The position numbers and the translations under genes were made by a program. DNA of 64,000 nucleotides. It comes from Eledone cirrhosa. Lineage: Eukaryota. The stretch is taken from NCBI GenBank assembly GCA_964016885.1, contig OZ024744.1, forward strand, positions 135,532,001 through 135,596,000, read 5' to 3'. The first letter of the stretch is position 1. The number at the start of each line of letters is the position of its first letter. The notes below the pieces were generated by a model. It was not told the origin of the DNA. It worked only from the letters and a program-made list of their open reading frames with translations, and ran no database searches. Shown here piece by piece: positions 13,351 through 37,400 of this stretch.

Positions 13351-13490
13351 AGTGTTAGGAAGGGCATCCAACTGTAGAAACCAAGCCAGAAACAGTGCTG
13401 TATGAGCAGAACATAGTCACCTGACCTGGCTTGTCTCACATGGGACAACTTGTCTAACCCATACTAACTTGGAAAATGGACATTAAATGG
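13325..13490 (+). mobile_element. 3' tail of RTE-LINE/SINE family, continuous with the last satellite monomer
   Basis: ...CACTGTAAAGTGGTTAGTGTTAGGAAGGGCATCCAACTGTAGAAACCAAGCCAG...TGTCTAACCCATACTAACTTGGAAAATGGACATTAAA matches the RTE 3'UTR at 32570-32745 and the reverse complement of 17690-17865. Confidence 0.9.
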
Positions 13491-17925: not shown

Positions 17926-17980
17926 CAATTATATGATAAAGTTATATCTGTATAACTATGTTCGAAAATCAATTCAAAGT

Positions 17981-20155
17981 CATCATCATCACCGTTTTAC
18001 ATCCGTTCTTCCATGCTAGCATGGGTTAGACGGGTTGTCCTGTTGTGGGCAGTGTCTGGTCGGCTGACCATGCCTTGCTCATGCAGGAACTGATTTGGCT
18101 TGATTTCTACAGCTGGATGCCCTTCCTAACACCAACCTCATTTACAGTATGGGCTGGGTGCTTTTTTGCCATGGCACCTCCACGACCACCTTGCAGTGGG
18201 AGGGTGTGGGGCATATTGTCTATATGCTTCAGCTTGTACCCATGGGAGGTCGGGTACTCTGTATTACTGCGTGACGCCAGAGGTCACGGTCGTGTGTCAT
18301 CGCCTTTGAGAGGTTAATTGGGTAAAGTCGGCTTTTATCACCTCATCCCAGGTCTTCTTGGGTCTCCCCACTCCGCGGTTTCCATTGACTTCTAGTGCTC
18401 TGCACCTTTTTATGCAGCTGTCATCCTTCATACGCATCACATGTCCATACCAACGCAACCGCCTCTCCTGCATGCAGCATTTGATTCCTCTTATGCTCAG
18501 TCTCTCTCTCAATTCATTTATGCTTTGTCGTTCGCGTATATTACTTTTACACATCCATCGGAGCATGCAGGCTTCGTTTCTTTCTAATTAACGTAAGTCT
18601 TCCACCTTCAGCGCCCAGGTCTCACTACCATGTAACATTGCTGTTCGGATACACGCATCATACAGTCTGCCTTTCATTCTGAGGGAGAAGCCTTTTGCAG
18701 CTAGCAGTGGCAGTAGTTCCCTGAACTTCTTCCATCCCGTTCTTACCCTAGTTATTGTACTTTCTGAACAGCCACCTCCGCTGCTAATTCGGTCACCTAG
18801 GTAGCAGAAGCTGTCTACTGTTTCTACAGAGCCCTCCCAGAGATTGGTGGTACTTGTTTCCTGTGGCTGTTTGCTGCTTGCTGTCTCAGCACAGCTGCTG
18901 CATGTGAAGCCTACATTCTTAATTAAGCTTCCTGAGATCCTGCTACATCTCTTGAGTACCCATTGTTTGCATTTGGGGCAGAGAATGGAGTTCCTACCTA
19001 CACCTTTCCTACATACTGAGCAAGGCCATTTCCCTGAGGGGATCTGGGCTCTGTTTTCTCGTCTACTTACAAGGACCTTAGTCTTTGAGACCCTTTCTTT
19101 CTAGTCTCTGCTTCCAAGTTTGGAATTTCTTCTCTAGTTCTACCATAGATTCAGCTATAAGTGCGAGGTCATCAGCATACAGGAATTCCCATGGGCATCC
19201 GGTCTTAAACTCCTCCGTTATTGCCTGCAGGACTATGATGAACAGGAGAGGGCTAAGAACAGAGCACTGGTGGACCCCAACCTGTACGCTAAATTCCTCG
19301 CTATACTCATTGCTAATCCTAACTTTGCTGACTGCTCCCCTATACATGGCTTGTACAGCTTTCACAAGCCATTCATCTACTCCTAGTTTTCTAAGAGCCC
19401 ACCAGATTACAGCACGTGGAACTCTGTCAAAGGCTTTCTCGAGATCGACGAATGCCAAGTAGAGTGGCTTACTTTTAGCTAGGTACTTTTCCTGTAACTG
19501 CCTCACAAGGAAGAGGGTATCAGTGGTGCCTCTTCCTGGTACAAACCCAAATTGCATCTCATCTAGTTTCACCCGGTCCCTAATCAACTATGCTATAACT
19601 CTTTCTGTTACTTTCATGACCTGGTCCATCAGCTTTATACCTCTATAGTTTCCTCTAACTAGTGCATCACCTTTACCTTTGTAGCAGTTGACAATGATGC
19701 TACTGCACCAATCTTTTGGTATGACACCTTCTAGTATTACCTGGTTAACAATACGTGTGGTTATAGTGTGACCTACAGACCCAGATGCCTTCAGCATCTC
19801 GGCAGCTATACCCGATGGACCGGTTGCCTTCCCCATCTTCATATCTTTGATTGCCTTACTTACTACGCTGCTGCTGACTTATACTGCTGGCCCCTCTATA
19901 GGATCTACTTGGGGTAGGGTCTCTTCTTCCCATGCATTCTCCTCATTTAGTAATCTATGATAATGGCTCTTTTATGCATCTTTCTTCTCAGCACTTGTGA
20001 GGGCAAGCTCACCTTTATCATTCCGGATACACTTCTCTCCAATGACATCACAATTCTCTCTGACACACTGCCTCGCAATCTTGAACACCTCCTGATTCTG
20101 GTCCTCACGTTGCAAAACATGCTTGAATTTTCTATCCTCTGCTTCCCTCCTAGCT
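17981..20155 (-). mobile_element. 5'-truncated RTE-clade LINE (RT domain, Cys-rich insert, 3'UTR, (GAT)n tail), inactivated
   Basis: NYRGIKLM, QFGFVPGRGTTD, FVDLEKAFDRVP, GVHQCSVLSPLLF, LYADDLAL, RRLRWYGHVMR, GRPKKTW; in-frame stops and frameshifts. Confidence 0.95.
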
Positions 20156-20324: not shown

Positions 20325-20347
20325 CTCTCTCTCTCTCTCTCTCTCTC
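20325..20347. repeat. (CT)n microsatellite
   Basis: Read directly from the sequence. Confidence 0.9.
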
Positions 20348-20509: not shown

Positions 20510-20592
20510 GTGATGGAGGTGGCTGATAGTGGTGGTGGTGGTGATGGTGGAAGTGGTGGTGTTGGTGGAAGTGGTGGTGTTGGTGATGATGG
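20510..20592. repeat. (TGG)n-rich low-complexity tract
   Basis: Read directly from the sequence. Confidence 0.85.
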
Positions 20593-20618
20593 CTGAAAGT
20601 AAGTAAAATGTTTGTTAC

Positions 20619-20747
20619 CTTGCTTGCTGTATGTGAACTTTGACCGGTTAGCGACACTTTTTCCTTCCAACTGGCCACAGTCCCATAACTTCATAGTTCC
20701 GTCTGGAACATGTAGCAAACATGGAGTGGTCTGTACACACAGCAATC
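20619..20747 (-). CDS. PIK3R4: PIK3R4/Vps15 exon (7th in window), first WD40 repeat; contains an apparent 2-nt deletion at ~20704
   Basis: ttttttaaag|G ATT GCT...CAA G|gtaac. Reads [14 protein letters not shown][shift]DGTMKLWDCGQLEGKSVANRSKFTYSKQG, versus recalled human [44 protein letters not shown]. Confidence 0.88.
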
Positions 20748-20848
20748 CTTTAAAAAATAACACAAGAATTTTATGACATGATTAATTATGTCACAGCATA
20801 AAATTCATTTTAGAAATTTTATGCAGTGAAGACATTTTTCCAATTCAG

Positions 20849-21115
20849 GTGGGTTCTATAAAAGTGGTTGATAGCTTCCAGTACCTAGGTGATCAGATTA
20901 GCATGGGAGAGGGGTGCTCCGAGGCCATAGTATCTAGAATAAGGACGGGTTGGAAGAAGTTTAGGGAGCTGCTCCCTCTGTTGACAAAGAAGGGTCTCTC
21001 CCTGCATATGAAAGGACAGTTATATGATGCAACTGCAGAAGATATGCAACGGCTGGAGAGAAATGAAGCAAGCATGCTCCGTTGGATGTGCAATGTCAAT
21101 GTACGTGAAAGACCA
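20849..21115 (+). mobile_element. RTE-LINE fragment (post-RT region, internally deleted)
   Basis: VVDSFQYLGDQIS, RIRTGWKKFRELLPLL, ERNEASMLRWMC. Confidence 0.85.
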
Positions 21116-21139
21116 CTGGAATGGAGAATTTTATATCAA

Positions 21140-21330
21140 TGGAGGCACATGGCTTAGTGGTTAGAGCATTGGCCTTGCAATCGAAATGTCTCTATGTGGT
21201 TAAATCGACTTGTTAGAAATAGTAGTTAAATCTACCTCAAATAACAACTCCCACATATCCAACAACAACATTGAAGGACAGTCTCTATATGGTTGATTGA
21301 CCTGCTAGAAACTATAGCTAAATCTCATTA
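21140..21330 (+). mobile_element. Degenerate tRNA-derived SINE
   Basis: A-box-like head TGGCTTAGTGGTTAGAGC, followed by a duplicated GACTTGTTAGAAATAG/GACCTGCTAGAAACTATAG segment. Confidence 0.55.
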
Positions 21331-21346
21331 ACAAACAACAACTCCC

Positions 21347-21955
21347 ATGGTGGTGGTGGTGATGGTGATGGTGGTGGTGGTGGTGGTGGTGGTGGTGGTG
21401 GTGATGGTGGTGGTGATGGTGGTGATGGTGGTGGTTGTGGTGGTGGTGAAGGTGGTGGTGATGGTGGTGGTAGTGGTGGTGTTGGTGGTGATGGTGGTGA
21501 TGGTTGTGGTGGTGGTGGCAGTTAGGGTGGTGGTGTTGGTGGTGGTGGTGTTGATGTTGGTGGTTGTGTTGGTGGTGGTGGTGTTGGTGGTGGTGATGGT
21601 GGTGGTGTTGTTGGTGGTGGTGGTGGTGTTGGTGGTGGTGGTGTTGGTGTTGGTGGTGTTGGTGGTGGTGATGGTGGTGGTGTTGGTGGTGGTGTTGGTG
21701 GTGGTGATGGTGGTGTTGGTGGTGGTGATGGTGGTGGTGGTAGTGAGGGTGGAGGTGGTGGTGGTGGTGGTGATGGTAATGGTGGTGGTGGTAATGGTGA
21801 TGGTGATGGTGGTGATGGTGGTGGTGGTAGAGGCAGTGGCAGTGAGAGTGGTGATGATAATGATTATTATGATGATGATGATTATGATGGTAGTGGTGAT
21901 GATGGTATTGGTGGTGATGATGATGTTGATGTTGATGATTATGGTGATGATGACA
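21347..21955. repeat. ~600-bp compound (GGT)n grading into (GAT)n trinucleotide repeat, intronic, ending ~20 bp from a splice donor
   Basis: Read directly from the sequence; the poly-Val ORF is an artefact. Confidence 0.95.
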
Positions 21956-21975
21956 AAGCTATTTGTAAAATTTAC

Positions 21976-22165
21976 CTGTTCACAACTGACTTGTGTTCTT
22001 GCATGTGAGCAACAAGTTGACCCTTTGGTTTCCAGTTCTGTGGAGGAAAAATCTGGTCAAGACCAACCCCTTCCAAGATGTCTTTTGTCCTAATATCAGC
22101 TTCGTATTGCTCTCGCCTGCGATTCACTAAATTCCTTAGGTCTTGTTTGCAAGGTGCATAACGAG
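21976..22165 (-). CDS. PIK3R4: PIK3R4/Vps15 exon (6th in window)
   Basis: tttactttag|CT...AAC AG|gtaaat. Reads [63 protein letters not shown], versus recalled human ...[24 protein letters not shown]. Confidence 0.93.
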
Positions 22166-22479
22166 CTAAAGTAAATCAGCAAAAGAGGAAAAACTGTTCA
22201 AACACATTTGTAACAATAGAAAAAATACAAGTAGTCCCCTGTTAAGTTATGTTCCAAACACCCCTGGTTCTATCAGACAAAACTGTTTTAAAGTGTTTAT
22301 ATTTATCTAAAAACCTTCCATCATAATTTTACCTAAGAACCTTTGCTAAGTTATGTTCCAAACACCAGCTTTACAATAAGAAAGTAACTTATATTACTAA
22401 ATCCTTCCAAATTCTTGGTTATTTTCACAGACAGTGAGAGTCCTTTCATAAAAAAAATATGGTAATGTGATTGTTAAGA

Positions 22480-23041
22480 AATAATTGTTTCTACTTTTGA
22501 CACAAGGCCAGCAATTACCCAGTACTTTATTTTATCGACCCCGGAAGGATGAAAGACAAAGTTAACCTCAGCGGGATTTGAACTCAGAATGACAAGGGCC
22601 ATAACTCTATGCGTCAAAGCATGGCGTCCGACCCTCTACCGATACTGCCAATCCAAAATAATAATTGTTTCTACTTTAGGCACAATGCCAGCAATTACCC
22701 AGTGCATTACTGGTACTTTATTTTATCGACTCCGTAAGGATGAAAGGCAAAGTCAACCTCAGTGGGATTTGAACTCAGATCGTAAAGGGACGTAACTATG
22801 CTGGAAAGCATGGCGTCCGACCCTCTACCGATACTGCCAATCCACCGCCAATCCAAAATAATAATTGTTTCTACTTTAGGCACAAGGCCAGCAATTACCC
22901 AGTACATTACTGGTACTTTATTTTATCGACCCTGTAAGGATGAAAGGCAAAGTCAACCTCGGCGGGATTTGAACTCAGATCGTAAAGGGACGTAACTATG
23001 CTGGAAAGCATGGCGTCCGACCCTCTACCGATACTGCCAAT
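22480..23041 (-). mobile_element. Three head-to-tail copies of a ~200-bp tRNA-derived SINE
   Basis: AATAATTGTTTCTACTTT..GCACAAGGCCAGCAATTACCCAGT...GGATGAAAGGCAAAGTCAACCTC..GGATTTGAACTCAGA at ~22480, ~22660 and ~22860; B-box-like GAGTTCAAATCC on the - strand. Confidence 0.85.
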
Positions 23042-23068
23042 GCAAATAATAATAAAACATAAACAGAC

Positions 23069-23279
23069 TCTGGATAGTTTGTTTTTCAGGAATTGTTCCT
23101 CGAAGATTGTTCCCTTCCAAAGAAGTCTGTGCAAAGACATTTGACGTGAGAGCAGGATTTGTTAAAGATGATCGGCGTTCTGAACCACTCTCCCATTTGA
23201 TGTTTCCTTTAGACTTTGGAGAACTCGACAAGGATTTTTCTGTGTCACTTGAACCAAACATACTTTTCCATTCAGCATT
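23069..23279 (-). CDS. PIK3R4: PIK3R4/Vps15 exon (5th in window)
   Basis: ttttttcccag|AAT GCT GAA TGG; NAEWKSMFGS matches recalled human NEEWKSMFGS. Phase-1 donor A|gtctgt is inferred from the phase of the next exon. Confidence 0.88.
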
Positions 23280-23799
23280 CTGGGAAAAAAAGAAAAAAAA
23301 AATATATATATATAAGAGAGTATTGAAGTTTGCTTGAAGCATTGTGGAATAATAAGATTTATTTTCTTTTGGTCGTTTTGGAAGCCTCAACAATGCAGAT
23401 GGGTAAGTCTCCGGGTAACAGGATCCGGTGGTGAAGAGAGAGATGTAAGGTAATGTAGAATGAGATGTATAGTGTGTAGAGGAACGTAGGAAAGAGCGTA
23501 AAAAATAAAAATAATAACACGAGATAGAGTTACCTTGGGAGAGATTTAATTGTCCCTATATTTCGGATTCGCATCCATCAACTGGGTTTTCCGGGGGAGA
23601 GGTGGGGAGTTATCTGTCGGAGAGGAACGGTATGTGTCCTCTGCTGTTCGCTGTTTGTGACTAACTGAGGTATTCTGCAGATAGCACGTGCGTGCGGAAT
23701 AGGTGCGGTCAAGCAAAGGTCGAAGCAGTTCTTTTAATTGTGGGAGTGGGATGGTGTTAGCTGTCAATCCATTGTAACTGCTAGTACCAAAAACCAGCA

Positions 23800-24345
23800 C
23801 AGATAAATAGTGTAGAGGGATACTACATCTAGGCTGAAGGTGTACCTATTGGATTTGAGGGTGTCAAGTTCTAGTTTGTTGAGTCGCTGGATGACATCAT
23901 CTGAGCTATAGATGTGGCCCGGGAAGGTTGTCAACAGGAGCTTTAAAATCTTGGACAGAAGCCAAAAGATTTTATAAGATGGTCCTTCAACACTGGAGAC
24001 AATGGGTCTAATTTTCAGGTCGGGTCCTTCTTCGTGGGTTTTGATCAGGTGGTAGAAGTTGGGCAGCTTGCTGTTTCTTGTTATGTAATTTTACTGGAAT
24101 CTCTTCGGGAGCCTTCGTTGATCACAGATGTTGGTCCAGGCAGTGTTGATCTGGTTCTCTATCAGTGTGGGTGTAATTCCAGTGACTTTTGAGTAGAGAC
24201 TGTCGTAGTTGAGATGTTGGTGGGTTCGGTTGTTGTAGGCCTCCCTATTAATAACACAAAACTCTTTTTCCTTGTCCAATGGGAGGTATACAAGGTCCTT
24301 AGATCTGAGGTTGCTTAGGGTAGCAAGTTGTGATCTGGAGGGATT
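23800..24345 (-). mobile_element. Penelope-like element RT fragment
   Basis: DKEKEFCVINREAY, LPNFYHLIKTH, KIRPIVSSVEGPSYKIFWLLSKILK, FSLDVVSLYT. Confidence 0.85.
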
Positions 24346-24654
24346 GTGGGGAGTGTGTGTGTGTTATTGTAGGATGTTAGTCATGGTAAGTTTTAACTGT
24401 CAGAGTTTATTCTCAAGATCACGGTTGATAGGTGGAGAGTGTAGTAAGCGGGGAATTCACGCACACACATACATATATCATACATTTCACAATGTGCACG
24501 TTCAAAATGTTAACGTCTTTTCATTTCATTTAACTTAAATCTGTATCTTTCGTATCTCCATAGTTAACAAAAGGGTTTTTATACCACAACAAAAAGATGA
24601 CCAAACAGAGGCACAGTTTACCATAGCTAGAAATAAACTTAGATAGGTAGTAGA

Positions 24655-24918
24655 CCATTCCCATGACTTTCGGAAACATTTTTTCACGCTCAGAGTTGCT
24701 GAAGCATGGAACAAACTACCTGCATCAGTTGTTAGCTGTCGAGACACTGCATCCTTTAAGACCTCCATGCTTCCCGAGATCCGCCAACACTACAGCTAAC
24801 ACATACACACATGTACTTCCCTGACATTTGTGTATTATTCTATGTACTATACATACACCTTTGACGAGTTGTAGTGCACCTGAGCACTTTACACAATAAT
24901 TTCATTATTATTATTATA
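24655..24918 (+). mobile_element. CR1-type LINE 3' end
   Basis: HDFRKHFFTLRVAEAWNKLPASVV..ASFK*, then a 3'UTR ending in (ATT)n. Confidence 0.85.
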
Positions 24919-24924
24919 TATTAA

Positions 24925-25410
24925 GAGACAAAACAGACAAGAGGTTCAACAACTTGGAAGAAAACCTGCAGAAGGCCTACTTAGCCTCAAGCAGTGCACA
25001 AGGGATGGTGAGGTAGTGTGTCTACCCACAGATAAATCTGGTAGGATGTCAATAGACAGCATACCAAACTATATCAAGGCTATGCTACCCCACAACATCA
25101 ACATGAGTGAAACAATACCACATGAGGAGAGAGAAAAGATTGTCAATGCTCACATGATGTGGACTGATATCCTAAAACCAAGTAGACATACAGCCAACAA
25201 CTTCCAAGCGTTTAACAATGACATACCACCCCTTGTATGGGCTCTGCAAAAACCATAAAACAACTAATGACCCTATACAGGACCACCAACAAGACCTGTA
25301 TGCGGAGCCAATATTGCTAGTAACTACAAGATCTCCTACTTCCTCTCTATGATTATACGCCCCATAATTAAAATGTCCCCTGATGTATGTTGCATCACAG
25401 AGGACATGGC
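24925..25410 (+). mobile_element. Second, divergent Penelope-like RT N-terminal fragment
   Basis: VVCLPTDKSGRMSI; frameshifted IPPL-YG..K.HK; PPTRPVCGA..ASNYKISYFLSMIIRP. Confidence 0.65.
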
Positions 25411-25606
25411 TTTAAAAATGAGGCTTGCTTGCATAATTGCAAATGAATTATATATTATTATTAATATCCGAAAAACTAAAATTATATTTATTATATTCAG
25501 CCATTTTTTTTTAATATGGCAAAGACGCTTGTATACAGGAAACTGTATATTCTTTGCTCTCGTGTTGGTATGTAAACAGAACTGCAGACACTAATGTTTC
25601 TGGGTA

Positions 25607-26435
25607 TTACTCTTCATCAGTACAGTTATGCAAATCTGGCTGATTTGCATAACGTTGTAGAACATGCTTGAACTTTCTAACCTCTGCTTCCTTTCCTGCA
25701 AAGTACACTTGTTGTCTAGCTTCTCTCCTAGCTACCCAATAGAGTTCTCTACTACCCCCATCCTGCCATTCTTTCCATACCTGCTTTTTGTCCTTGATGG
25801 ACTCCTCCACCTTACTATTCCACCACCATGTCACTCTCCTCCTGCCTAATGGTCTGCTCCAGCCACAGAATTCATCAGTCGCCTTCAGCAGGTTAACTTT
25901 CAGGAATTCCCACTGTTCCTCTATATTGTATGTCTCTAATTGCTCTTCCTTACTGTCAAAGGCATCAAGTAATATGCTTTTAAATTTGTTACTGGCTGTG
26001 GGGTCCTTCAACTTCCATATTCTTCTCCTCAAGGTAGTCCTCCTCTGTCGTCGAGTACGCCTCGTCCTGACTATGAGGACGCTAATTATGAGGCTATGTT
26101 GGGAGGTGCATCCTTCATGGGGGAGGGACTTAGTGTTTACAACAGACACTGTCACGTCTTCTAGTAAGGATATAATCTATCTGGCTGGCGTGTTCCCCTG
26201 ATGTACAGGTGATCAAGTGATTGTCTCGTTTTTTGAAGTTTGTGTTAGATAGTTAGGTTATTAGCATCACAGAATTTCAGGAGCCTAAAGCCTTCCTCAT
26301 TTCTAGTATCAAACCTATAGCCTCCATGGATTCCGTCATAGCCATCAAAATGTTGACCAATGTGATCATTTAGGTCACATTGGTCTCGTTTTTTGAAGTT
26401 TGTGTTACAGATAGTTAGGTTATTAGCGTCACATA
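25607..26435 (-). mobile_element. RTE-LINE endonuclease/linker fragment with a local ~50-bp duplication
   Basis: GIHGGY..RNEEGFRLLKFCDANNLTI, SQIDYIL, RRIWKLKD, TWWWN; 26380-26432 repeats 26221-26270. Confidence 0.85.
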
Positions 26436-26699
26436 TATTAGTATCATACATATATGTGTCCCACCTTTGTAAGCAAGGAAAAGCGGAGGTAAAATGATGA
26501 TGATACATACATACACACACATACATATACAACCACACACACACACATATATACACACACACAGTAGAGATACATGTTGATGCAGGTATTCCACAGAAAA
26601 CTCCTGTTTCGAGGAGTTTAACTAATTTTTCTAAAACAATAAAAGAGAAAAAAATGAAAACTTGGTAAAATAAAATATAAATATTCTTGTAATAGTTAC

Positions 26700-26748
26700 C
26701 ATAGCAACTGCTGAGTTGTCTAACTGGGGACTTTTCTTCCTTCGTGAT
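26700..26748 (-). CDS. PIK3R4: PIK3R4/Vps15 49-bp exon (4th in window)
   Basis: ttctttattccacgatag|A TCA CGA AGG AAG...GCT ATG|gtaact. Reads SRRKKSPQLDNSAVAM and exactly bridges the phase-2 and phase-0 ends of its neighbours. Confidence 0.82.
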
Positions 26749-26809
26749 CTATCGTGGAATAAAGAAAAAAGAATAAAATAATCAAGTGGATATATATATG
26801 TATATATAT

Positions 26810-26890
26810 ATCATCATCATCGTTTAACGTCTATCTTCCATGCTAGCATGGGTTACATGGGAATTGTCCCATTTAAGGTAAGATTGGTGT
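26810..26890 (-). mobile_element. Short RTE-family tail insertion
   Basis: ATCATCATCATCGTTTAACGTCTATCTTCCATGCTAGCATGGGTTA, near-identical to 17691-17737. Confidence 0.8.
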
Positions 26891-26926
26891 CTCTGTGTCT
26901 ATCTATCTATAAATATATATTACTAC

Positions 26927-27788
26927 GATATTTGTTCGCAAGATTACGGTCTAGGAAAAAATAACACATTAGTTTTATTTTTTAAGATATATTTATCAAA
27001 CTTGGGTCAGTTTGTCTTCATGACTTGTTCTTTCAATCTCACTCGATAAACCTGCCATTGGCTTTGATGACGGCCTCAAGGCGGCCTTGGAACCGGCTAC
27101 AGGCCTTCGTCACTGTCCCCTGACTTAGGCCCCTAAAGGCATTTGTGATCCTGGCCTTCAGATCGTCTTTTGTATTGCAGCTAGATCTGTTGGTATCTCA
27201 TTCCACTGCGCCCCACACAAAGAAGTCGAGGGGGTTGCAGTCAGACTAGCTGGGAGGCCAGATATCAGGGGAAGTGTGGTCGACGAAGTTCTCTGACAGC
27301 CAGGCTTGGATCTTTCGGCTGGCATGGCAGGGCGCTGAGTCTTGGTGCCACACGTACGGCCTACCTGCAGCTACCTGGTCGATCCAGGGCTTTACTACCT
27401 CGCTCAGAACGCGGATGTAGCCATCGGTGTTCAGCTTGAGACCCTCAGGCATGAAGTCACCTTGACTGCTGACGACACCTAAGACCAATGTTCTTGCTGG
27501 AAACTTTGTTTGCATGACTCTGGGCACATCTTTGGATGAGACAGCGAGCCACCTGTTGTTCTGGGAGTTGATCTTCTGGTCTTATTTGTCCTCGCGGCGC
27601 GGATTCTAAGAACTCCGTGTCTCTTCCACAAATTTGGAGGTTCAAAATTATTCATAATCAATTATTCTGAAAAGAAATAATGGAAATATAGTCACTGTTT
27701 TTATGAAGACAAGAGTGACAACGGAAGTAAGAAAAATTTGCATAAAATTAGCAGTTGAAAATTGCGAACAAATATCATCCACACCCTG
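26927..27788 (-). mobile_element. Tc1/mariner superfamily, DD37D (maT)-type, deleted copy
   Basis: WHQDSAPCH...WPPS*SDCNPLDFFVWG with 37 residues between the two Asp. TIR core GATATTTGTTCGCAA is inverted at both ends (left end eroded); the right end CACCCTG is followed by TA. Confidence 0.88.
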
Positions 27789-27811
27789 TATATATATATA
27801 CAGAGAGAGAG

Positions 27812-27907
27812 ATATGAGCAAGGCATGGTCAGCCGACCAGACACTGCCCACAACAGGACAACCCGTCTAGCATGGAAGAACGGACGTAAAACAGTGATGA
27901 TGATGAT
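27812..27907 (+). mobile_element. RTE-LINE 3' tail fragment with (GAT)n
   Basis: Near-identical to the reverse complement of 17981-18083. Confidence 0.85.
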
Positions 27908-28059
27908 ATATATATATATATTTATATATATATATGTACATAAATATATAGTGGCAAGAAACTCCCAGGAGAGCTGGGACAAAGGTCTTCAGAGAAGAGA
28001 CCACCACCCACCCAGATGAGTGTTTTGGCCCTTAACTTTTATATATATCTATATATACA

Positions 28060-28240
28060 CTTACATGACCACTTTAGAGTGTGTACTGGGTACTTTTTGT
28101 TGTGACACCTACATGACCACTTTACAGTGTGGACTGGGTACTTTTTGTTGTGACACCTACATGACCACTTTTTGTCTCACATGGGACAACTTGTCTAACT
28201 CATGCTAACATGGAAAATAGATGTTGACCAGTGATGATGG
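28060..28240. mobile_element. Orphan ~2.3 monomers of the 48-bp satellite (inverted) fused to a + strand RTE tail
   Basis: 28060-28171 is the reverse complement of the array consensus. It is followed by TTGTCTCACATGGGACAACTTGTCTAAC, identical to 13431-13458. Confidence 0.9.
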
Positions 28241-28396
28241 TGGTGGTGGTGGTGATGGTGGTGGTGGTGATGATGTGATGGTGTGATGGTGGTGATGATG
28301 GTGGTGATGGTGATGGTGGTGGTGGTGGTTATGGTTGTGGTGGTGATGGTGGTGGTAGTGGTGATGATGGTGATGGTGGTGGTGACGGTGGTGATG
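28232..28396. repeat. (TGG/TGA)n trinucleotide tract
   Basis: Read directly from the sequence. Confidence 0.9.
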
Positions 28397-28430
28397 AAAA
28401 TACGTAATAAAAAAAATTCCTACTACATAC

Positions 28431-28580
28431 CGTGCCGGTGAGTTTGGTGTTTCTGTTCTGGTATCTTTAGGTTTGAAGAGATCAGCATGTCTTCGGGTAA
28501 ATGTGTTACCAAGATGACGAAGATTTAGTTTCCCACGTGAACATTCATCATCTATTTCAGCAAATACAGCTTCAACAGAG
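28431..28580 (-). CDS. PIK3R4: PIK3R4/Vps15 exon (3rd in window)
   Basis: tatacttgtag|C TCT GTT...GCA CG|gtatgt. Reads SVEAVFAEIDDECSRGKLNLRHLGNTFTRRHADLFKPKDTRTETPNSPAR, versus recalled human [22 protein letters not shown]. Confidence 0.85.
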
Positions 28581-28804
28581 CTACAAGTATAATTGTGCAT
28601 GGTACAATGGCTTCTGATTTAGGTAGAAAAGAGAGGGTGGGGGAGCCAATTGCATTGACCTCAGCGAGTTAATGGTACTTTATTTTATTCAATAAATATA
28701 CATCAAGAAAATTAGCACCAGTCTGAAATATACATTAGGGTTGATATGATTGATCGGATTGGTTAAAACCTTGTATATGACCAACAAAAACCTGCCCCAG
28801 CATG

Positions 28805-29850
28805 CAGGGCTGGATATAGACTGGGGACACACACACATACACTTCAGGTTTGGAGGGACTCATACACAAAAAACTACAATTCCCAGCAAACCCCCCAATT
28901 TTACATATCAAAGTTAGCTTGTCCAGCTAACCTCAGTCTCCTCTGTGTCACTTTTGAGCTGACCTTTGGGAGGCTCCCATACAGCTATGAGTTTTTCATC
29001 CTCAGTGTATACTGATTCATGTTCAGAGCCATCCTCAGTATTCTCATGTAGCACCCATCCACCATCTGGGTGAGTTTCTTGGTTAATGTCCAAGTCTCAG
29101 ACCCGTACAGCAGCAGATTCCACTACAGCAATGAAGAGGCGGATCTTCAGGTCTTTATGAAGGTTCGACTTCCACACCGATCTCAATCTGTGGCACACCG
29201 CCCAGGATTTGCTCTTCCTCTCAACTACATCATCTTCCGTATTCCCAATTCTATGATCCCCTCTGGCTTCTCAACATTCTCTACCAGACATTTTGTCTTA
29301 GTCTCATTCATTCTCAGCCCCACACTCATCGACACAGTCTCAACTTCCTGCATCAAATCCTCTGCCTCCTTCACTGTATTTGTCACCAAAACTATGTCGT
29401 CGGCAAATTCAGCATCTGATATCTTTTTCACAGAGGAGACTGAGGTTAACTGGACATGCTCACTGACATCCAGAGTTGACACTGCACTCAGTGCTCCTGT
29501 AGGAGCCCCTGCATGGACACACTGGAAGAGGAAGACCAAGGTTAACGTATGTTGATGCCCTAAGGACAGACACTGGTCTCTTGGAGACGCAGGACATGGC
29601 AGCAATAATGAGGGACAGAGACTGCTGGAGAGAACTCGTCCATGGATCTCGGGAATTTTACCCGCTCTAGACAGTTAGCTTGGTGCAAGTAATTAGAATT
29701 AAAAAGTTATACATACAGGTATTAAATTAAAAAATTCTAACCATTATAAAACTAAAAAGCCCAGCTGAGGACACTCAGCCATTGCTGTTGGGAGCCCCAC
29801 TGTAGGGGACCTGGGGAAATTACCCCCACCTCCCATTAAATCCAGCCCTG
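28805..29850. mobile_element. Non-autonomous hAT-type element with an 8-bp TSD, containing a LINE insertion
   Basis: TIRs CAGGGCTGGAT / ATCCAGCCCTG; perfect TSD CCAGCATG at 28797-28804 and 29851-29858. Confidence 0.88.
28921..29672. mobile_element. 5'-inverted (twin-primed) LINE insertion, same family as 30035-30765
   Basis: 28921-~29427 on - (EFADDIVLV..), ~29428-29672 on +; flanked by the direct repeat AGTTAGCTTG (28912-21, 29673-82). Confidence 0.85.
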
Positions 29851-29901
29851 CCAGCATGGCCACAGTCAAGTGTTAAGAGGTGTACATGTAATGAAACTTA
29901 C

Positions 29902-29945
29902 CTGGAGCGAGATCTGTTGAGTTTTAATATGAAATCTTTCATAGC
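29902..29945 (-). CDS. PIK3R4: PIK3R4/Vps15 44-bp exon (2nd in window)
   Basis: ctttcttctttag|GCT ATG AAA GAT TTC...TCC AG|gtaagt. Reads AMKDFILKLNRSRS, versus recalled human ALKDFMMKSNKAK. Confidence 0.9.
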
Positions 29946-30034
29946 CTAAAGAAGAAAGTGGGTGTAATTAGAAACAAGTAGAGAACTCTGAGAGCTGTTG
30001 TGTTAAGGTACAGCATTACATACCTTGAACATTA

Positions 30035-30765
30035 CAGTTTTGGTGACAAATACAGTGAAGTAGGCAGAGGATTGGATTCAGGAGGTTGAGACTGTGTTGA
30101 TGAGTGTGGGGCTGAGAATGAATGAGACTAAAACAAAATATCTGGTAGAGAATGTTGAGAAGCCAGAGGGGATCACTAATGTAGGCAGGAAGCCGCTAGA
30201 ACTGGTTGAGGACTTACTGTATTTGGGAGCAAAGATTGGGAATACGGAAGATGATGTGGTTGAGAGGAAGAGCAAGGCCTGGGCGGCGTGCCACAGCTTG
30301 AGATCGGTGTGGAAGTCGGACCTTCGTAAAGACCTGAAGATCCGTCTCTTCATTGCAGTAGTGGAGTCTGTGCTGCTGTACGGGTCTGAGACTTGGACAC
30401 TGACCAAGAAACTCACTCAGATGGTGGATGGGTGCTACACGAGAATGCTGAGGATGACTCTGAACATTAATCAGTATACACTGAGGATGAAAAACTCAGA
30501 GCTGTATGGGAGCCTCCCAAAAGTCAGCTCAAAAGTGACACAGAGGAGACTGAGGTTAGCTGGACATGCTCGCCGACATCCAGAGTTGACACTGCACTCA
30601 GTGCTCCTGTAGGAGCCCCTACATGGACACACTGGAAGGGGAGACCAAGGTTAACGACAGACACTGGTCTATTGGAGACGCAGGACATGGCAGCGATAAT
30701 GAGGGACAGAGACCGCTGGAGAGAACTCGTCCATGGATCTCGGGAATTTTACCCGCCCTAGAATT
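30035..30765 (+). mobile_element. 5'-truncated non-LTR retrotransposon (RTE-group C-terminal RT region; clade uncertain)
   Basis: GLRMNETKTK, LYLGA, VESVLLYGSETWTLT, RRLRLAGHARRH, GRGRPRL. Confidence 0.9.
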
Positions 30766-30864
30766 GATATACGACAGTCGATTGACTTTCGTCAAATTGG
30801 ACCGAGGAAACAATGTTTCCAATTGTTTCCATTGTTAATACTATCTATCGGTCGCAACTCCAGG

Positions 30865-30982
30865 TAGAAGGAGCAACATGAAATAAAGTGTCTTGCTCAA
30901 TCATCACCTGGTCCAGGAATTGAACTCACAACTTCACGATTGCAAATCCTGGTCTCTAACCACTCAGCCGCACGCCTTCACT
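30865..30982 (-). mobile_element. tRNA-derived SINE 5' part
   Basis: - strand GGCTGAGTGGTTAGAG (A box), GAGTTCAATTCC (B box), then TTGAGCAAGACACTTTATTTCA shared with 32945-32970. Confidence 0.75.
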
Positions 30983-31099
30983 GTATTGATATACAGCATT
31001 TGTTAAATCTGGTGGAGCCCTTCTCCTCTCCAGGTCTGAATACCAGACAAAGATAGAGAGGGTGAGAGAATGGAAGTGAGGAAGAGATACAGAGAGAGT

Positions 31100-31400
31100 A
31101 TAGACTCCAGTACACGACTGGTACTTTTATATTGACCTTGATTGGATGAAAGGTAAAGTTGACCTTGGTGGTGTGTGTCTGTGTTTCTGTGTATGTTGTG
31201 TGTGTGTATTTCGGTGTGTTTCTGTGTGTATATGTATGTCTGTGTGTGTGTGTGTATGTATGTGTTTCTGTGTGTATGTGTGTCTGTGTGTGTGTGTCTG
31301 TGTATGTGTGTCTGTGTGTGTCTGTGTATGTGTATATGTGTGTGTGTATCTGTTTCTGTATGTGAGTGTATGCGTGTGTGTGTGGCTGTATGTGTGCATG
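31100..31400. repeat. SINE fragment (same family as 22480-23041) followed by a (TG)n-rich compound microsatellite
   Basis: ACTGGTACTTTTAT..GGATGAAAGGTAAAGTTGACCT, then a TG-rich tract at 31170-31400. Confidence 0.85.
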
Positions 31401-31601
31401 GGCTTCTATATGTGAGTGCCTGTATGTGTTTCTTGATGTCATAAGGAAAATCTCCGTTACAACTCATAAATACACACCTGGTGAGACTTAAAATTTACCT
31501 AAGTTTGATTTATCTGATTAATTAACAGGTAATTCAAGATAAATAAGATTTTAATAATTTAAACTGAACTGAAGCACTCTATCAGTTACAACGATGAGTG
31601 T

Positions 31602-32749
31602 AGAGAAGAAATTCCAAACATGGAAGCAGGGACTAGAAACAAAAGGTCTCAAAGTCAACCTGACAAAGACTAAGGTCCTTGTAAGTAGACGAGAAAACAG
31701 AACCCAGATCCCCTGAAGGAAATGGCCTTGCTCACTATGTAGGAAAGGTGTAGGTAGGAACTCCATTCTCTGCCCCAAATGCAAACAATGGGTTCACAAG
31801 AGATGTAGCGGGATCTCAGGAAGCTTAACTAAGAATGAAGGCTTCACATGTAGCAGCTGTGCTGGGACAGGAAGCAGCAAACAGCCACAGGAAACAATCA
31901 CCACTAAACTCTGGGAGGGCTCTGTAGAAACAGTAGACAGCTTCTGCTACCTAGGTGACCAAATTAGCAGCAGAGGTGGGTGTTCGGAAAGTACAATAAC
32001 TAGGGTAAGAACAGGATGCAAGAAGTTCAGGGAGCTACTGCTACTGCTAGCTGCAAAAGGCTTTTCCCTCAAAATGAAAGGCAGACTGTATGATGCGTGT
32101 ATACGAACAGCGATGTTACATGGTAGTGAGACCTGGGCACTGCCTGTGGAAGATTTGTGTAGATTGGATGTGTAATAGTAATATATGCGAACGGCAAAGC
32201 ATAAATGAATTGAGAGAGAGACTGAGCATAAGAGGAATCAAATGCTATGTCCAGGAGAGGCGGTGACGTTGGTATGGACATGTGATGCGTATGAAGGATG
32301 ACAGCTGCATAAAAAGGTGCAGAGCACTAGAAGTCAATGGAAACCGCGGAGTGGGGAGACCCACGAAGACCTGGGATGAGGTGATAAAAGCCGACTTTAC
32401 CCAATTACACCTCTCAAAAGCGATGACATACGACCGTGACTTCTGGCGTCATGCAGTAATACAGAAGACCCGGCCCCCAATAGGTACAAGCAGAATCTGA
32501 AGCATATAGACAATATGCCCCCACACCCTCCCACTGCAAAGAGGTCGTGGAGGTGCCACGGCAAAAAAGCACCCAGCACCCACTGTAAATGAGGTTGGTG
32601 TTAGGAAGGGCATCCAGCTGTAGAAATCAAGCCAGAATCAGTTCCCGTATGAGCAAGACAAGGTCAGCCGACCGGGCACTGCCCACTACAGGACAACCCG
32701 TCTAACCCATGCTAGCATGGAAGAACGGACGTAAAACCGTGATGATGAT
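31602..32749 (+). mobile_element. 5'-truncated RTE LINE, close relative of 17981-19135, inserted into a SINE
   Basis: Reverse-complement similarity along its length; (GAT)n tail; TSD GATGAGTGT at 31593-31601 and 32750-32758. Confidence 0.93.
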
Positions 32750-33035
32750 GATGAGTGTTCTAGTTGATCCGATTAACAGAACAGCCTGCTCATAAAATTA
32801 ACGTGCATGTGACTGAGCATTCCACAGATATGTGGGCACTTAACGTAGTTCTCAGGGAGATTCAACATCATACAGAATGTGACAATGCTAGCTCTTCGAA
32901 TTACATGTACAATTTATTTTTGCCAGGTGAGTGGACTGGAGCAACGTGAAATAAAATGTCTTGCTCAGGGACACAACACATCGCCAGGAATCGAACTGAC
33001 AACCTTACGATTGTAAACCCAATACCCTAACCACA
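32750..33035 (-). mobile_element. tRNA-derived SINE (remainder at ~31570-31601, split by the RTE)
   Basis: - strand head GTGGTTAGGGTATTGGG..GTTCGATTCC (B box); core CTGAGCAAGACATTTTATTTCACGTTGCTCCAGTCCACTCA. Confidence 0.8.
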
Positions 33036-33048
33036 ATGCCATCTAAAG

Positions 33049-33411
33049 CAGTGGCGAAGGGTAACCTGGAAAGCAGTGCATGCAGTCCAATCGCCATGGC
33101 GGAAAGTGGTGTTGTGCAGCCTTACCCCCACACCTCCCAATTCCCTCTAAATCATCCTCCCGGTCAAAGCTGCATGTAGTGTTATCTAGTGTGTGTTCTC
33201 TTTCTATGTGTCTACGATTTAGTAAGCAGTCTAATTTCTGCTTGCCCCAAAGCTGTTGTGTGTTTGTGTGTTTGTGTGTATGTGTGTGTGCATGTGTGTT
33301 ATCTTTTTTGTGTCTATACGTTTTAGTAAGCAGCCAAAATTCTGCTTGCTTCAACCGACGCAATTGATCAACTCAAGATTCTATAACGCATGCACGGACC
33401 CTTCGCCCCTG
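33049..33411. mobile_element. 363-bp hAT MITE
   Basis: TIRs CAGTGGCGAAGGGT / ACCCTTCGCCCCTG; TSD ATCTAAAG / ATATAAAG (7 of 8 match, central TA as in Buster-type targets). Confidence 0.8.
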
Positions 33412-33639
33412 ATATAAAGTACTAACAGTGGTACCTGGCGTTGCACGGGATAAGGTATTGTGAAATATATAACTGCCTTAGCTAAGCTTAGTATTGCCAC
33501 AACCACAGCTGGCAAAGAAGTAAGGGTCTGGTGGTACATAAGTAAGCAACACTGTGGCTTAAAACATGAGGAAGAAGTTGTGTGCACTTACCAACTGTTT
33601 GGGGAATGAGTGTGAGATTTGTGTTGAGCAAGAGTGGCA

Positions 33640-34002
33640 GAATAATCGGAGGCAGCAGACAGCCAGACATACAGACAGATATTATAAGGGCGCGTTCTGG
33701 ACGCAGAGCGAATTGTAGGAAGTGACGTAATGCAGACAGCCAGACATATAGAGAGATATTATAAGGGTGCGACGTTATATGTATGTATCTATCTAAAAAG
33801 AGAAAGACTAAGAATTATAGAGAGAGATCGCTAAATTGCCTAGGGCATTGAAAATTTGAAATTTCTTTTTGCTCAGAACACTCCCTGAAACATTAGTATT
33901 ACATGTGTAAAGTTTGAAAACAGTCGGTTGGGTGGTTCTCTAGTTTTAGGGATTCAAACTCACACACAAAGACAGACATCCTCAGTTTTATATATATATA
34001 GA
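33640..34002 (-). mobile_element. Probable Helitron-like non-autonomous element fragment
   Basis: - strand starts TCTATATATATATAAAACTGAGGATGTCTGTC; internal duplicated GCAGACAGCCAGACAT..GATATTATAAGGG (33654 and 33732). Confidence 0.5.
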
Positions 34003-34329
34003 TATTAGAAACGATAATTCTAGTAATATATGACAAATATTCACAAAGTTGGCTAAAAAACCTTTGATTACATAAATATGGGAAAGATAGGTAAAAGGTA
34101 AAATAAGGAGAAAATAGGGGAGGGGGAAGAAGGGCAGGTCTGGTTGTGAGGGACGGTAAGAAAAGGGCAGATCTGGTTGGAGGCGAGTGTGAGGGGGTAA
34201 AGCAGGACAGATCTAGCTGTGGAGGGGAGTGGTAGAGAATGCCAGATCTGGCTTGGGTACAGAAAAGGATACACACTGTTGGGTTTTTTTGTTATTTTTA
34301 TTATTTTGCAACTGTTAAAATCTACTTAC

Positions 34330-34386
34330 AATTAATTTCTCTTCGGTTAATTCACTCATTCCAAGAGAGAAAAGCTTCCGGAAGAC
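34330..34386 (-). CDS. PIK3R4: PIK3R4/Vps15 57-bp exon (1st in window)
   Basis: tattatttgacag|GTC TTC CGG...TTA ATT|gtaagt. Reads VFRKLFSLGMSELTEEKLI, versus recalled human LLKKLLSQGMTEEEEDKLL; in frame with the next exon. Confidence 0.9.
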
Positions 34387-34444
34387 CTGTCAAATAATAT
34401 CACCATTTTCATTACAAACATGTCATCATCATTGTTTTCTAAAC

Positions 34445-37400
34445 TGACATGGGCTAGACAAGTAATTACAGACTATTGTCCTACATACATGGGTTGGACA
34501 AGTTATTACAGGCTATTGACCTACATACATGGGTTGGACAAGTTATTACAGACTATTGTCCTACCTGGCATGGGTTGGACAATGTATTACAGACTATTGT
34601 CCTACCTGTCATGGGTTGGACAAGTTATTACAGACTATTGTCCTACCTGTCATGGGTTGGACAAGTTATTACAGACTATTGTCCTACCTGTCATGGGTTG
34701 GACAAGTTATTACAAACTATTGTCCTACATACATGGGTTGGACAAGTTATTACAGACTATTGCCCTACCTGTCATGGGTTGGACAAGTTATTACAGACTA
34801 TTGTCCTACCTGTCATGGGTTGGACAAGTTATTACAGACTATTGTCCTACATACATGGGTTGGACAAGTTATTACAGACTATTGCCCTACCTGTCATGGG
34901 TTGGACAAGTTATTACAGACTATTGCCCTACCTGTCATGGGTTGGACAATGTATTACAGACTATTGTCCTACCTGTCATGGGTTGGACAAGTTATTACAG
35001 ACTATTGTCCTACATACATGGGTTGGACAAGTTATTACAGACTATTGTCCTACCTGTCATGGGTTGGACAAGTTATTACAGACTATTGTCCTACATACAT
35101 GGGTTGGACAAGTTATTACAGACTATTGTCCTACCTTTCATGGGTTGGACAAGTTATTACAGACTATTGTCCTACATACATGGGTTGGACAAGTTATTAC
35201 AGACTATTGTCCTAACTGTCATGGGTTGGACAAGTTATTAGAGACTATTGTCCTACCTGGCATGGGTTGGACAAGTTATTACAGACTATTGTCCTACCTG
35301 TCATGGGTTGGACAAGTTATTACAGACTATTGTCCTACATACATGGGTTGGACAAGTTATTACAGACTATTGTCCTACCTGTCATGGGTTGGACAAGTTA
35401 TTACAGACTATTGTCCTACCTGGCATGGGTTGGAGAAGTTATTACAGACTATTGTCCTACATACATGGGTTGGACAAGTTATTACAGACTATTGTCCTAC
35501 CTGTCATGGGTTGGACAAGTTATTACAGACTATTGTCCTACATACATGGGTTGGACAAGTTATTACAGACTATTGTCCTATATACATGGATTGGACAAGT
35601 TATTACAGACTATTGTCCTACCTGTCATGGGTTGGACTAGTTATTACAGACTATTGTCCTATATACATGGGTTGGACAAGTTATTACAGACTATTGTCCT
35701 ACCTGTCATGGGTTGGACAAGTTATTACAGACTATTGTCCTACATACATGGGCTGGACAAGTTATTACAGTCTATTGTCCTATATACATGGGTTGGACAA
35801 GTTATTACAGACTATTGTCCTACCTGGCATGGGTTGGATAAGTTATTACAGACTATTGTCTTACCTGTCATGGGTTGGACAAGCTATTACAGACTATTGT
35901 CCTACCTGTCATGAGTTGGACAAGTTATTACAGACTATTGTCTTACCTGTCATGGGTTGGACAGGTTATTACAGACTATTGTCCTACATACATGGGTTGG
36001 ACAAGTTATTACAGACTATTGTCCTACATACATGGGTTGGACAAGTTATTACAGACTATTGTCCTACCTGTCATGGGTTGGACAAGTTATTACAGACTAT
36101 TGTCCTACATACATGGGTTGGACAAGTTATTACAGACTATTGTCCTACCTGGCATGGGTTGGATAAGTTATTACAGACTATTGTCTTACCTGTCATGGGT
36201 TGGACAAGCTATTACAGACTATTGTCCTACCTGTCATGAGTTGGACAAGTTATTACAGACTATTGTCCTACCTGTCATGGGTTGGACAGGTTATTACAGA
36301 CTATTGTCCTACATACATGGGTTGGACAAGTTATTACAGACTATTGTCCTACATACATGGGTTGGACAAGTTATTACAGACTATTGTCCTACATACATGG
36401 GTTGGACAAGTTAGTACAGACTATTGTCCTACATACATGGGTTGGACAAGTTATTACAGAATATTGTCCTACATACATGGGTTGGACAAGTTATTACAGA
36501 CTATTGTCCTACATACATGGGTTGGACAAGTTATTACAGACTATTGTCCTACCTGTCATGGGTTGGACAAGTTATTACAGACTATTGTCCTACATACATG
36601 GGTTGGACAAGTTATTACAGACTATTGTCCTACCTGGCATGGGTTGGATAAGTTATTACAGACTATTGTCTTACCTGTCATGGGTTGGAGAAGCTATTAC
36701 AGACTATTGTCCTACCTGTCATGAGTTGGACAAGTTATTACAGACTATTGTCCTACCTGTCATGGGTTGGACAGGTTATTACAGACTATTGTCCTACATA
36801 CATGGGTTGGACAAGTTATTACAGACTATTGTCCTACATACATGGGTTGGACAAGTTATTACAGACTATTGTCCTACATACATGGGTTGGACAAGTTATT
36901 ACAGACTTTGTCCTACCTGTCATGGGTTGGACAAATTATTACAGACTTTTATCCTACCTGGCATGGGTTGGACAAGTTATTACAGACTATTGTCCTACCT
37001 GTCATGGGTTGGACAAGTTATTACAGACTATTGTCCTACCTGTCATGGGTTGGACATGTTATTACAGAGTATTGTCCTACCTGTCATGGGTTGGACAAGT
37101 TATTAGAGACTATTGTCCTACATACATGGGTTGGACAAGTTATTACAGACTATTGTCCTACCTGTCATGGGTTGGACAAGTTATTACAGCCTATTGTCCT
37201 ACATACATGGGTTGGACAATTTATTACAGACTATTGTCCTACCTGTCATAGGTAGGACAAGTTATTACACACTATTGTCATACCTGTCATGGATTGGACA
37301 AGTTATTACAGACTATTGTCCTACCTGTCATGGCTTGGACAAGTTATTACAGACTATTGTCCTAAATTCATGGGTTGGACAAGTTATTACAGACTATTGT

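Follow-up and report, generated by a model that had tools for sequence, protein, structure and literature searches.

Does an octopod gene carry long satellite arrays within its introns? The question is raised by a 64,000-nucleotide stretch of the Eledone cirrhosa contig OZ024744.1 (the window), for which a first-pass annotation had described seven PIK3R4 (Vps15) exons between two tandem arrays and had proposed satellite-filled giant introns. The seven exons (57, 44, 150, 49, 211, 190 and 129 bases) lie on the minus strand, each bounded by AG and GT; their sizes and GT-AG ends were borne out, except that exon 1 starts at 34386 and not at 34387. The gene assignment held as well, since the protein search did return PIK3R4: when the O. 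bimaculoides protein was searched against the window with tblastn, every exon was matched (E 2e-34 to 2e-3, with the top background match at E 2.6), and 285 of 299 residues were equal. Corresponding counts were 280/299 for each of O. vulgaris and O. sinensis and 278/299 for Argonauta hians, so that the four orthologues (XP_052829468.1, CAI9734703.1, XP_029648574.1 and GAB1604564.1, in the order O. bimaculoides, O. vulgaris, O. sinensis, A. hians) are 93-95% identical to the window over 299 residues. For comparison, O. bimaculoides and O. vulgaris are alike at 298 of 306 positions over this region. Residue differences from the orthologues are concentrated in the variable linker of exon 5, and the whole portion is orthologous in sequence to the linker and first WD40 repeats of PIK3R4/VPS15, residues 754-1059 of an orthologue of 1344 amino acids.

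Exon 1 (34330..34386, 57 bases, residues 754-772) has a weak acceptor, with 8 pyrimidines in 20 bases; the real PIK3R4 acceptors in the window range from 8 to 20. Exon 2 (29902..29945, 44 bases) follows at a boundary that is the same in the old, split O. bimaculoides gene models P0009/P0010. Exons 3 (28431..28580, 150 bases), 4 (26700..26748, 49 bases) and 5 (23069..23279, 211 bases, with a weak donor) lead to exon 6 (21976..22165, 190 bases), which encodes the end of the coiled region and the start of the first WD40 repeat; its peptide is 100% identical to XP_052829468 and matches residues 937-998 of human PIK3R4 with E 2.6e-11. Once joined, exons 1-6 form a single open frame, and up to this point the junction phases match as the first-pass annotation had claimed, but exon 7 (20619..20747) shifts the frame and exits in a phase that does not fit exon 8.

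Exon 8 itself had been overlooked. No further WD40 exon had been reported between 13350 and 20618, and from this a downstream intron of more than 20 kb had been deduced; an 85-base WD40 exon lies at 14494-14410 on the minus strand (14410..14494), covering residues 1032-1059 with a tblastn E value of 3e-12 and a Pfam WD40 E value of 0.0037 that falls under the curated cut-off. The intron between exons 7 and 8 is thus an ordinary one of 6,124 bases, and the array-bearing intron beyond exon 8 has a lower bound of 14,409 bases. Searches with tblastn and four orthologues found no exons hidden in the arrays or in 13350-14409, and no PIK3R4 exons before residue 754 or after residue 1059 within the window; the N-terminal kinase and HEAT region and the other WD40 repeats are absent from it. 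Judged by their sequence, the matched segments are eight internal exons of octopod PIK3R4, shown in identity and in order.

Splicing of these exons is documented by a contig from a different E. cirrhosa sample (run X4, record 26; 2,094 bases, depth 24), which contains exons only and has no differences from the window in 550 bases of exons 3, 5 and 6. From this exon-only contig we infer that X4 is an RNA-type run. Exon 4 fits a 51-base gap between the pieces listed for the record (49 bases plus the first 2 of exon 5), and the weak donor of exon 5 is backed by the direct adjacency of record positions 512 and 513. The record holds at least 3 of the 8 exons among the pieces listed and runs on for 1,391 bases past exon 6, a remainder that by arithmetic fits exons 7-8 (216 bases), the 859 coding bases left to complete the orthologue and roughly 317 bases of untranslated region. 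By the same arithmetic it begins one base before exon 1, too late to show how that exon connects with the one before it. PIK3R4 is therefore spliced in E. cirrhosa, with exons 3, 5 and 6 on one contig, and continues beyond the window. One X4 record overruns one end or the other of the aligned stretch. In run X10, from another organism, the pieces listed match only a transposon-like stretch (14694-17683) and no exon.

The open reading frame across the exons is broken in the assembled copy by a 2-base loss in exon 7, which has 129 bases here and 131 in the orthologues. The frame changes near 20704, after residues ATCS (tblastn frames -1 then -2), and reaches a stop at 20650-20648; the peptide given in the first-pass annotation stops exactly at this break. 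A consensus error is an unlikely cause, because a DNA contig of depth 8.2 carries the loss without any difference and the site is not a homopolymer. DNA contigs over 20596-20875 measure 280 bases in run X1 and 282 in run X2, so that sample S1 shows the window form in one run (depth 8.2) and a form with 2 additional bases somewhere in this interval in the other (depth 4.5); both runs possibly derive from the same sample as the window and are then not independent of it. VPS15 is described as essential in fly and mouse (PMC5123056), and an intact PIK3R4 copy must therefore exist. With two forms in the DNA of one sample, the frameshift is probably heterozygous, and it would represent a null allele covered by an intact one.

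The lesion fits a second reading equally well, in which exons 1-8 and portions of the arrays form a recent partial duplicate, now dead, produced by exchange between arrays, and the working gene with the longer exon 7 lies elsewhere. A frameshift in an essential gene, the two exon 7 forms in one sample, the arrays on both sides, which favour unequal exchange, and the lack of flanking PIK3R4 exons within the window all speak for such a duplicate, and the depth of exon-bearing pieces (4.5-13.3) is too noisy to tell a heterozygote from a second copy. Against it, the 915 exon bases carry no lesion besides the 2-base loss and the 550 compared with the transcript are all identical, which a duplicate could show only if it were very young. 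Breakpoints placed inside the arrays would also leave the parent gene with array-bearing introns anyway. We regard the duplicate as unlikely, though as the most serious competitor of a heterozygous null allele, and the edges of the arrays bear on it further.

Upstream of exon 1, a 41/40-base tandem array occupies 34444..64000 (at least 29,557 bases, running off the window; 726 copies by TRF). Its distance from the exon 1 acceptor was measured at 57 bases, close to the 55 or so given earlier. Parsing yielded 724 units, 495 of them 41 and 218 of them 40 bases long, with 154 distinct units, a mean identity to the consensus of 96.3% and no interruption longer than 80 bases. The array makes up 99.8% of what the window shows of the upstream intron, whose lower bound is 29,614 bases. 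Its unit matches the retroelement described below over 16-17 bases, with no match at E 0.05, and in four comparisons of the array edge with the element the score was equalled by 20, 17, 3 and 4 shuffles out of 500, a weak link. A shared origin of the 41- and 48-base units was considered and found unsupported, the best local scores being 13-14.

The 48-base array, beyond exon 8, spans 2..13349 (at least 13,348 bases in 279 copies, running off the window) and accounts for 92.6% of what the window shows of the downstream intron, with 121 distinct units. A stop-free frame of 471 residues, running from 13463 into the array, was rejected as a gene, since 48 is divisible by 3 and one consensus frame has no stops. 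Overlapping the inner edge of the array is a plus-strand copy of a retroelement 3' tail (13293..13480); the array's final unit forms its 5' part, and this copy is the likely seed. Three other tails, at 18192-18009, 32538-32722 and 17902-17711, align with the copy over about 190 bases at 77-79% identity (E 2e-37 to 6e-31), and none of 500 shuffles reached the end-to-end score; the copy's non-array part alone (13350-13480) matches six places within 13481-34387 with E up to 0.025. The 48-base unit is in turn 75-79% identical to 18198-18141, 32532-32588 and 17917-17850. A broken non-LTR reverse-transcriptase element on the minus strand of intron 7 (approximately 17980..20150), which may be RTE-like, holds the progenitor of the unit in its 3' tail and contains a Pfam RVT_1 domain at 19081-19587 (E 2.9e-21). 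At 28057..28221, 2.4 copies of the unit lie in the opposite orientation, adjoining 50 bases that are 92% like the element at the array's edge. From the sequence continuity between tail and array, a retroelement tail likely seeded the 48-base array.

These features also bear on the possibility that PIK3R4 is intact and single and that the assembly has misjoined or inflated the arrays, the true introns being far shorter or the arrays coming from elsewhere. Exact duplicates occur within both arrays, of up to 1,131 bases in the 41-base array and of 2,900 bases (offset 3,150) in the 48-base array, which also has a 99% duplicate at offset 4,018; the 2,900-base copy may be an assembly artefact, and none of the contigs listed spans an array. 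For the greater part of each array, however, no exact twin exists, and hundreds of distinct units follow one another uninterrupted; such numbers of variants (154 and 121 distinct units) are what a real array would show. The 48-base array is continuous in sequence with an intronic element, and DNA contigs of runs X1 and X2 extend 150 and 172 bases beyond 34399 towards the 41-base array with raised depth (21.8 and 32.7), above that of the other exon-bearing pieces. We therefore consider misassembly on this scale improbable, more so than a dead duplicate. The array edges look like natural ends and not like the breakpoints that a duplicate might show: the 48-base array passes directly into its parent element at a point 1,060 bases into the intron, and the 41-base array stops 57 bases short of an intact exon 1 acceptor.

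The transcribed strand of the 41-base array carries a motif that could suggest a more active role. Among the 724 units there are 433 YAG/GTR sites on this strand and 2 on the other; 372 of them read CAG/GTAGGA, which agrees with the U1 consensus, used here for donor match counts over 9 positions, at 7 of 9 (the eight real donors score 4-9), and the 20 bases upstream of the array sites contain 10-13 pyrimidines, compared with 8 at the real exon 1 acceptor. The AG/GT sites might then act as a ladder for recursive splicing, or as decoys that cut PIK3R4 output in proportion to array length. In the fullest version, transcription of PIK3R4 would pass across two satellites born of retroelements and tens to hundreds of kilobases long, with several hundred recursive sites upstream and an AG/GT unit that grows by aiding its own removal. 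Yet a single motif copied many times is one event, the motif was spotted after the fact, and 3% of shuffled units contain one on a given strand. In the 48-base array the site occurs 199 times on the non-transcribed strand and 6 times on the transcribed strand, indicating that the motif arises easily, and the sites of the 41-base array appear to lack a strong pyrimidine tract. Any 41-base unit taken in as an exon would bring stops in all frames. Active splicing within the array is, in our judgement, very improbable, and the fullest version equally so.

We consider it probable that both arrays sit in PIK3R4 introns, with the flanking exons in cis beyond them and outside the window. Polymerase II would read through the arrays, and ordinary exon-definition splicing would remove them. 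The arrays may have grown by slippage or unequal exchange, first from a short internal repeat of the element and then by block duplications of kilobases, and they would be passengers, neutral or slightly costly. The account as a whole, with eight PIK3R4 exons, arrays that grew in place in the flanking introns and a 48-base array derived from a retroelement tail, is in our view probably correct. The old O. bimaculoides gene models break at the exon 1/2 boundary and not at the array-bearing intron, and thus offer no hint of a large intron at that place in O. bimaculoides.

Comparable cases are in print. The 30-bp VNTR TRACT in an intron of human CACNA1C ranges from 3 to more than 30 kb with many variants, and its long alleles are associated with lower expression in some tissues (PMC13131567). 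It resembles the arrays here as a short-unit, many-variant array on a kilobase scale, in the intron of a working gene there and in what we infer to be introns here; it is one array as against two, its abstract gives no retroelement origin, and both arrays here run off the window, one of them ending 57 bases short of an acceptor. SINE-derived satellites of squamate reptiles form loci of 320, about 950 and more than 1,200 monomers (PMC10702118), and the limpet satellite PcH-Sat, pericentromeric with a 179-bp unit, derives from Nin-SINE (PMC11121367). Like the 48-base array, these are described as tandem copies of the internal part of a dispersed retroelement, but their parents are SINEs, whereas the parent here is a 3' tail common to a reverse-transcriptase element and shorter copies; the word 'intron' is absent from the main text of the reptile paper, and the arrays here are probably intronic. 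Chicken lampbrush chromosomes are reported to have transcribed 41-bp arrays, started from LTRs (PMC11602149).

Giant introns of Drosophila occur in the Y fertility genes kl-3 and kl-5 and in the autosomal genes Pzl, Myo81F and Mitf (PMC6508621, PMC6508613, PMC11207136). As in the visible parts here (99.8% and 92.6%), tandem repeat fills them almost throughout. They are described as hundreds of kilobases to megabases long and made of simple repeats such as 5-mers, in contrast to at least 29.6 and 14.4 kb of 41- and 48-base units, and the earlier term 'giant' in the sense of the Y genes (PMC6508621) goes beyond these lower bounds; long VNTRs within introns and satellites that arose from retroelements resemble the locus more closely. 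With units of 41/40 and 48 bases, the arrays are not of the simple short-unit type such as (AATAT)n. The Y genes are further described as testis-only and served by dedicated RNA-binding proteins, and PIK3R4 is an essential housekeeping gene. For cephalopods, literature searches listed no study of introns filled with satellite or of satellites derived from retroelements; neither topic is treated in the covered parts of the main text of the 2026 O. vulgaris repeat annotation, and 'satellite' has no occurrence in Albertin 2022 (PMC9068888, term search), a Bioessays review (PMC12988792) or PMC9115989. The locus is a tidy instance of known processes, not a new system, and current views stand.

The 48-base array offers a clean snapshot of satellite birth, in which the parent element, copies of two units and an array of 13 kb all occur within 20 kb. 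Introns of this kind would break gene models; one octopod annotation set the intron maximum at 20,000 bases (PMC9795677). Should the arrays be intronic, octopods tolerate tens of kilobases of homogeneous satellite in an essential gene, to within 57 bases of a weak acceptor, and a housekeeping gene of a cephalopod would be added to the fly fertility genes and human VNTRs as a setting of intronic satellites.

Two tandem arrays flank 21 kb of mixed sequence in the window: 48-base units fill 13.3 kb at 2-13349, and 41-base units fill 29.6 kb at 34444-64000. When the seven minus-strand PIK3R4 (Vps15) exons proposed in the first-pass annotation were cut out by coordinates, all were bounded by AG and GT, with exon 1 starting at 34386. 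Tblastn with four full-length homologues recovered each of them above background, whereas residues 1-753 and 1060-1344 of these queries had no match in the window. The annotation had reported no further WD40 exon in 13350-20618, but tblastn placed an 85-base exon 8 at 14494-14410, in which 26 of 27 residues are the same as in O. bimaculoides. Exon 7 is therefore followed by an intron of 6,124 bases. The likely intron that bears the 48-base array, earlier put at more than 20 kb, begins instead after exon 8 and spans at least 14,409 bases, 92.6% of this visible part being array. Mean length across the seven internal introns is 2.7 kb.

Protein searches with exon 6 bore out the gene assignment: it is 100% identical to PIK3R4 of O. 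bimaculoides (XP_052829468.1; two matches among five candidates), and it matches residues 937-998 of human PIK3R4 at E 2.6e-11. Of 299 residues encoded by whole codons, the window shares 285 with O. bimaculoides, 280 each with O. vulgaris and O. sinensis, 278 with Argonauta hians and 233 with a more distant protein (P0011). O. bimaculoides and O. vulgaris are alike at 298 of 306 across the region of exons 1-8, so the window likely comes from another octopod. The reference PIK3R4 protein contains kinase, VPS15 helical and WD40 domains (Pfam). The O. sinensis model XP_029648574.1 (P0006; 1,291 residues) has an aberrant C-terminus, likely caused by an assembly frameshift. Behind exon 5 (22647-23041) is a 200-base repeat in two copies, which belongs to a very abundant dispersed element, and a 480-base (TGG)n-type run stands just behind exon 6 (21348-21828).

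Contigs from sequencing runs X1 and X2 (both from sample S1), X4 (same organism label, another sample) and X10 were compared with 14400-34399; none of the 14 runs found is on record as RNA. In two repeat-poor bins X4 had a depth of 1.3 and 1.6, compared with 41 and 576 for X1, from which we infer that X4 is RNA. Its contig 26 (2,094 bases, depth 24) matches 28580-28431, 23277-23069 and 22165-21975 at contig positions 103-252, 304-512 and 513-703 with 0 differences in 550 bases, so that exon 5 directly abuts exon 6; the gap preceding exon 5 has the right length for exon 4, and exons 1 and 2 with one further base would account for the first 102 bases. These are at least three of the eight exons, and the join of exon 1 to its upstream exon is not among the pieces. 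The exon 5 donor (23069-23068), used in this spliced contig, matches only 4 of 9 positions of the donor consensus. Past exon 6 the contig runs for 1,391 bases, a length accounted for by exons 7-8 (216), 859 orthologue coding bases and ~317 of UTR, and a transcript identical to the window exons thus likely continues into exons beyond the window. The contig would thus start one base upstream of exon 1, as it might at a fork between a spliced and an unspliced path; this is a weak hint at most.

The matching junction phases described earlier hold for exons 1-6, which form one open frame, and fail at the WD40 exon 7 (20747-20619), which has 129 bases where orthologues need 131. Its frame shifts after ATCS and reaches a stop at 20650-20648, and the phase in which it ends is wrong for exon 8. 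Over 20596-20875, X1 contig 3 (depth 8.2) carries the window's 280 bases with zero differences, and X2 contig 18 (depth 4.5) carries 282, differing by one substituted letter and two gap positions; the extra bases are placed to within this interval, where orthologues need exactly two. Since X1 and X2 come from the same sample, both forms are present in the DNA of one animal, and on a simple reading the two-base loss is likely a heterozygous null allele. We think it unlikely that the window holds a recent dead duplicate of PIK3R4, a reading that would set the frameshift beside exons matched without a difference by a spliced contig; depth varies too much from one exon-bearing piece to another (4.5-13.3, with the two at exon 1 set aside) to reveal a second copy, and X1 and X2 may be the assembly's own source reads and so not independent of it. 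As a heterozygous allele, the loss would spoil this assembly's model of an essential gene, loss of VPS15 being lethal in fly and mouse (PMC5123056).

The 48-base array was parsed into 274 units (92.3% alike, 121 distinct). Intron 7 holds a reverse-transcriptase element (Pfam RVT_1, E 2.9e-21), which we take to be RTE-like; a stretch in the 3' tail of this element and of other copies is 75-79% like the array unit, and the last unit of the array passes unbroken into the rest of the element tail. Here 13293-13480 aligns with three window copies over ~190 bases at 77-79%; for the two copies tested, none of 500 shuffles scored as high. Intermediate forms have two units (17917-17844) and 2.4 units (28057-28171). 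The latter is inverted and, within 28057-28221, joined to 50 bases 92% like the array's edge element, which suggests that the 48-base seed was copied and rearranged here. Contigs joining the tail-like part to the 48-base-unit part have a depth of ~460-490, which makes it likely that elements of this kind are numerous in the rest of the genome. In octopus, RTE LINEs have been reported as active (PMC9115989, PMC13282606).

Block duplications within the array occur at offsets of 4,018 (at least 99% over 2.5 kb, 1-2500 vs 4019-6500) and 3,150 (exact over 2,900 bases, 6337-9236 vs 9487-12386), the exact one being either very recent growth or an assembly artefact. A misjoined assembly or inflated arrays would be an improbable explanation of the whole. 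Growth in place is favored because both array edges are natural ends, not cuts, and because X1 and X2 contigs extend past 34399 at raised depth by 150 and 172 bases, lengths given without their letters.

Parsing of the 41-base array gave 724 units, among them 495 with 41 bases and 218 with 40, in irregular order; they are 96.3% alike, with 154 distinct and no interruption. The link of this array to the same retroelement is weak: in four comparisons of its edge with the element tail, 3-20 of 500 shuffles met the score, and a further search gave no match. On the minus strand of 34444-64000, most 41-base units contain CAG/GTAGG (433 sites) and most 40-base variants GTATGT (195 sites). A role for this array in splicing is very improbable: its 433 YAG/GTR sites are on the transcribed strand, mostly with 7 of 9 matches to the donor consensus, and the real exon 1 acceptor beside it is unusually weak, but the ladder is one motif copied, which chance would put on a given strand in 3% of shuffled units, and in the 48-base array this motif lies on the wrong strand. 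The same minus strand has a single AATAAA in 29.6 kb, so few poly(A) signals would lie in the path of read-through transcription.

At ~14700-17700, transposase-like broken frames (16423-17019 and 17079-17492, no Pfam match) belong to what is presumably a DNA transposon, broken by an insertion at ~15241-16141. A 1,882-base contig from X10, an RNA-type run of another organism, is ~96-97% alike without the insertion, and the element is either widely shared or horizontally moved.

We consider it probable that a repeat in a retroelement copy grew into an array within an intron and that the gene is transcribed through and spliced normally. An intronic copy with a short internal repeat would have been the starting point, slippage and unequal exchange would have made it an array, and later growth would have proceeded in kilobase blocks, with PIK3R4 transcribed across the arrays as passengers. 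Introns of O. minor average 5.4 kb (PMC6279123), a length that the upstream intron would exceed by a factor of five or more. The arrays resemble human TRACT, a 3-30+ kb intronic VNTR (PMC13131567), and are built in the same manner as reptile SINE-derived satellites (PMC10702118). Drosophila gigantic introns contain simple repeats (PMC6508621), unlike the 41- and 48-base units here, and the lower bounds on intron size in the window do not show membership of that class. In the literature covered, which includes few subscription papers, we found no report of satellite-filled introns or retroelement-derived satellites in cephalopods; supplements, the O. vulgaris repeat library among them, may hold these units. 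The reverse-transcriptase element, in which a PHD-like zinc finger scores below cut-off (E 8e-5), has two broken, opposite-oriented copies at 17980-20150 and ~31600-32760, and in one pre-mRNA such an inverted pair could give double-stranded RNA for A-to-I editing.
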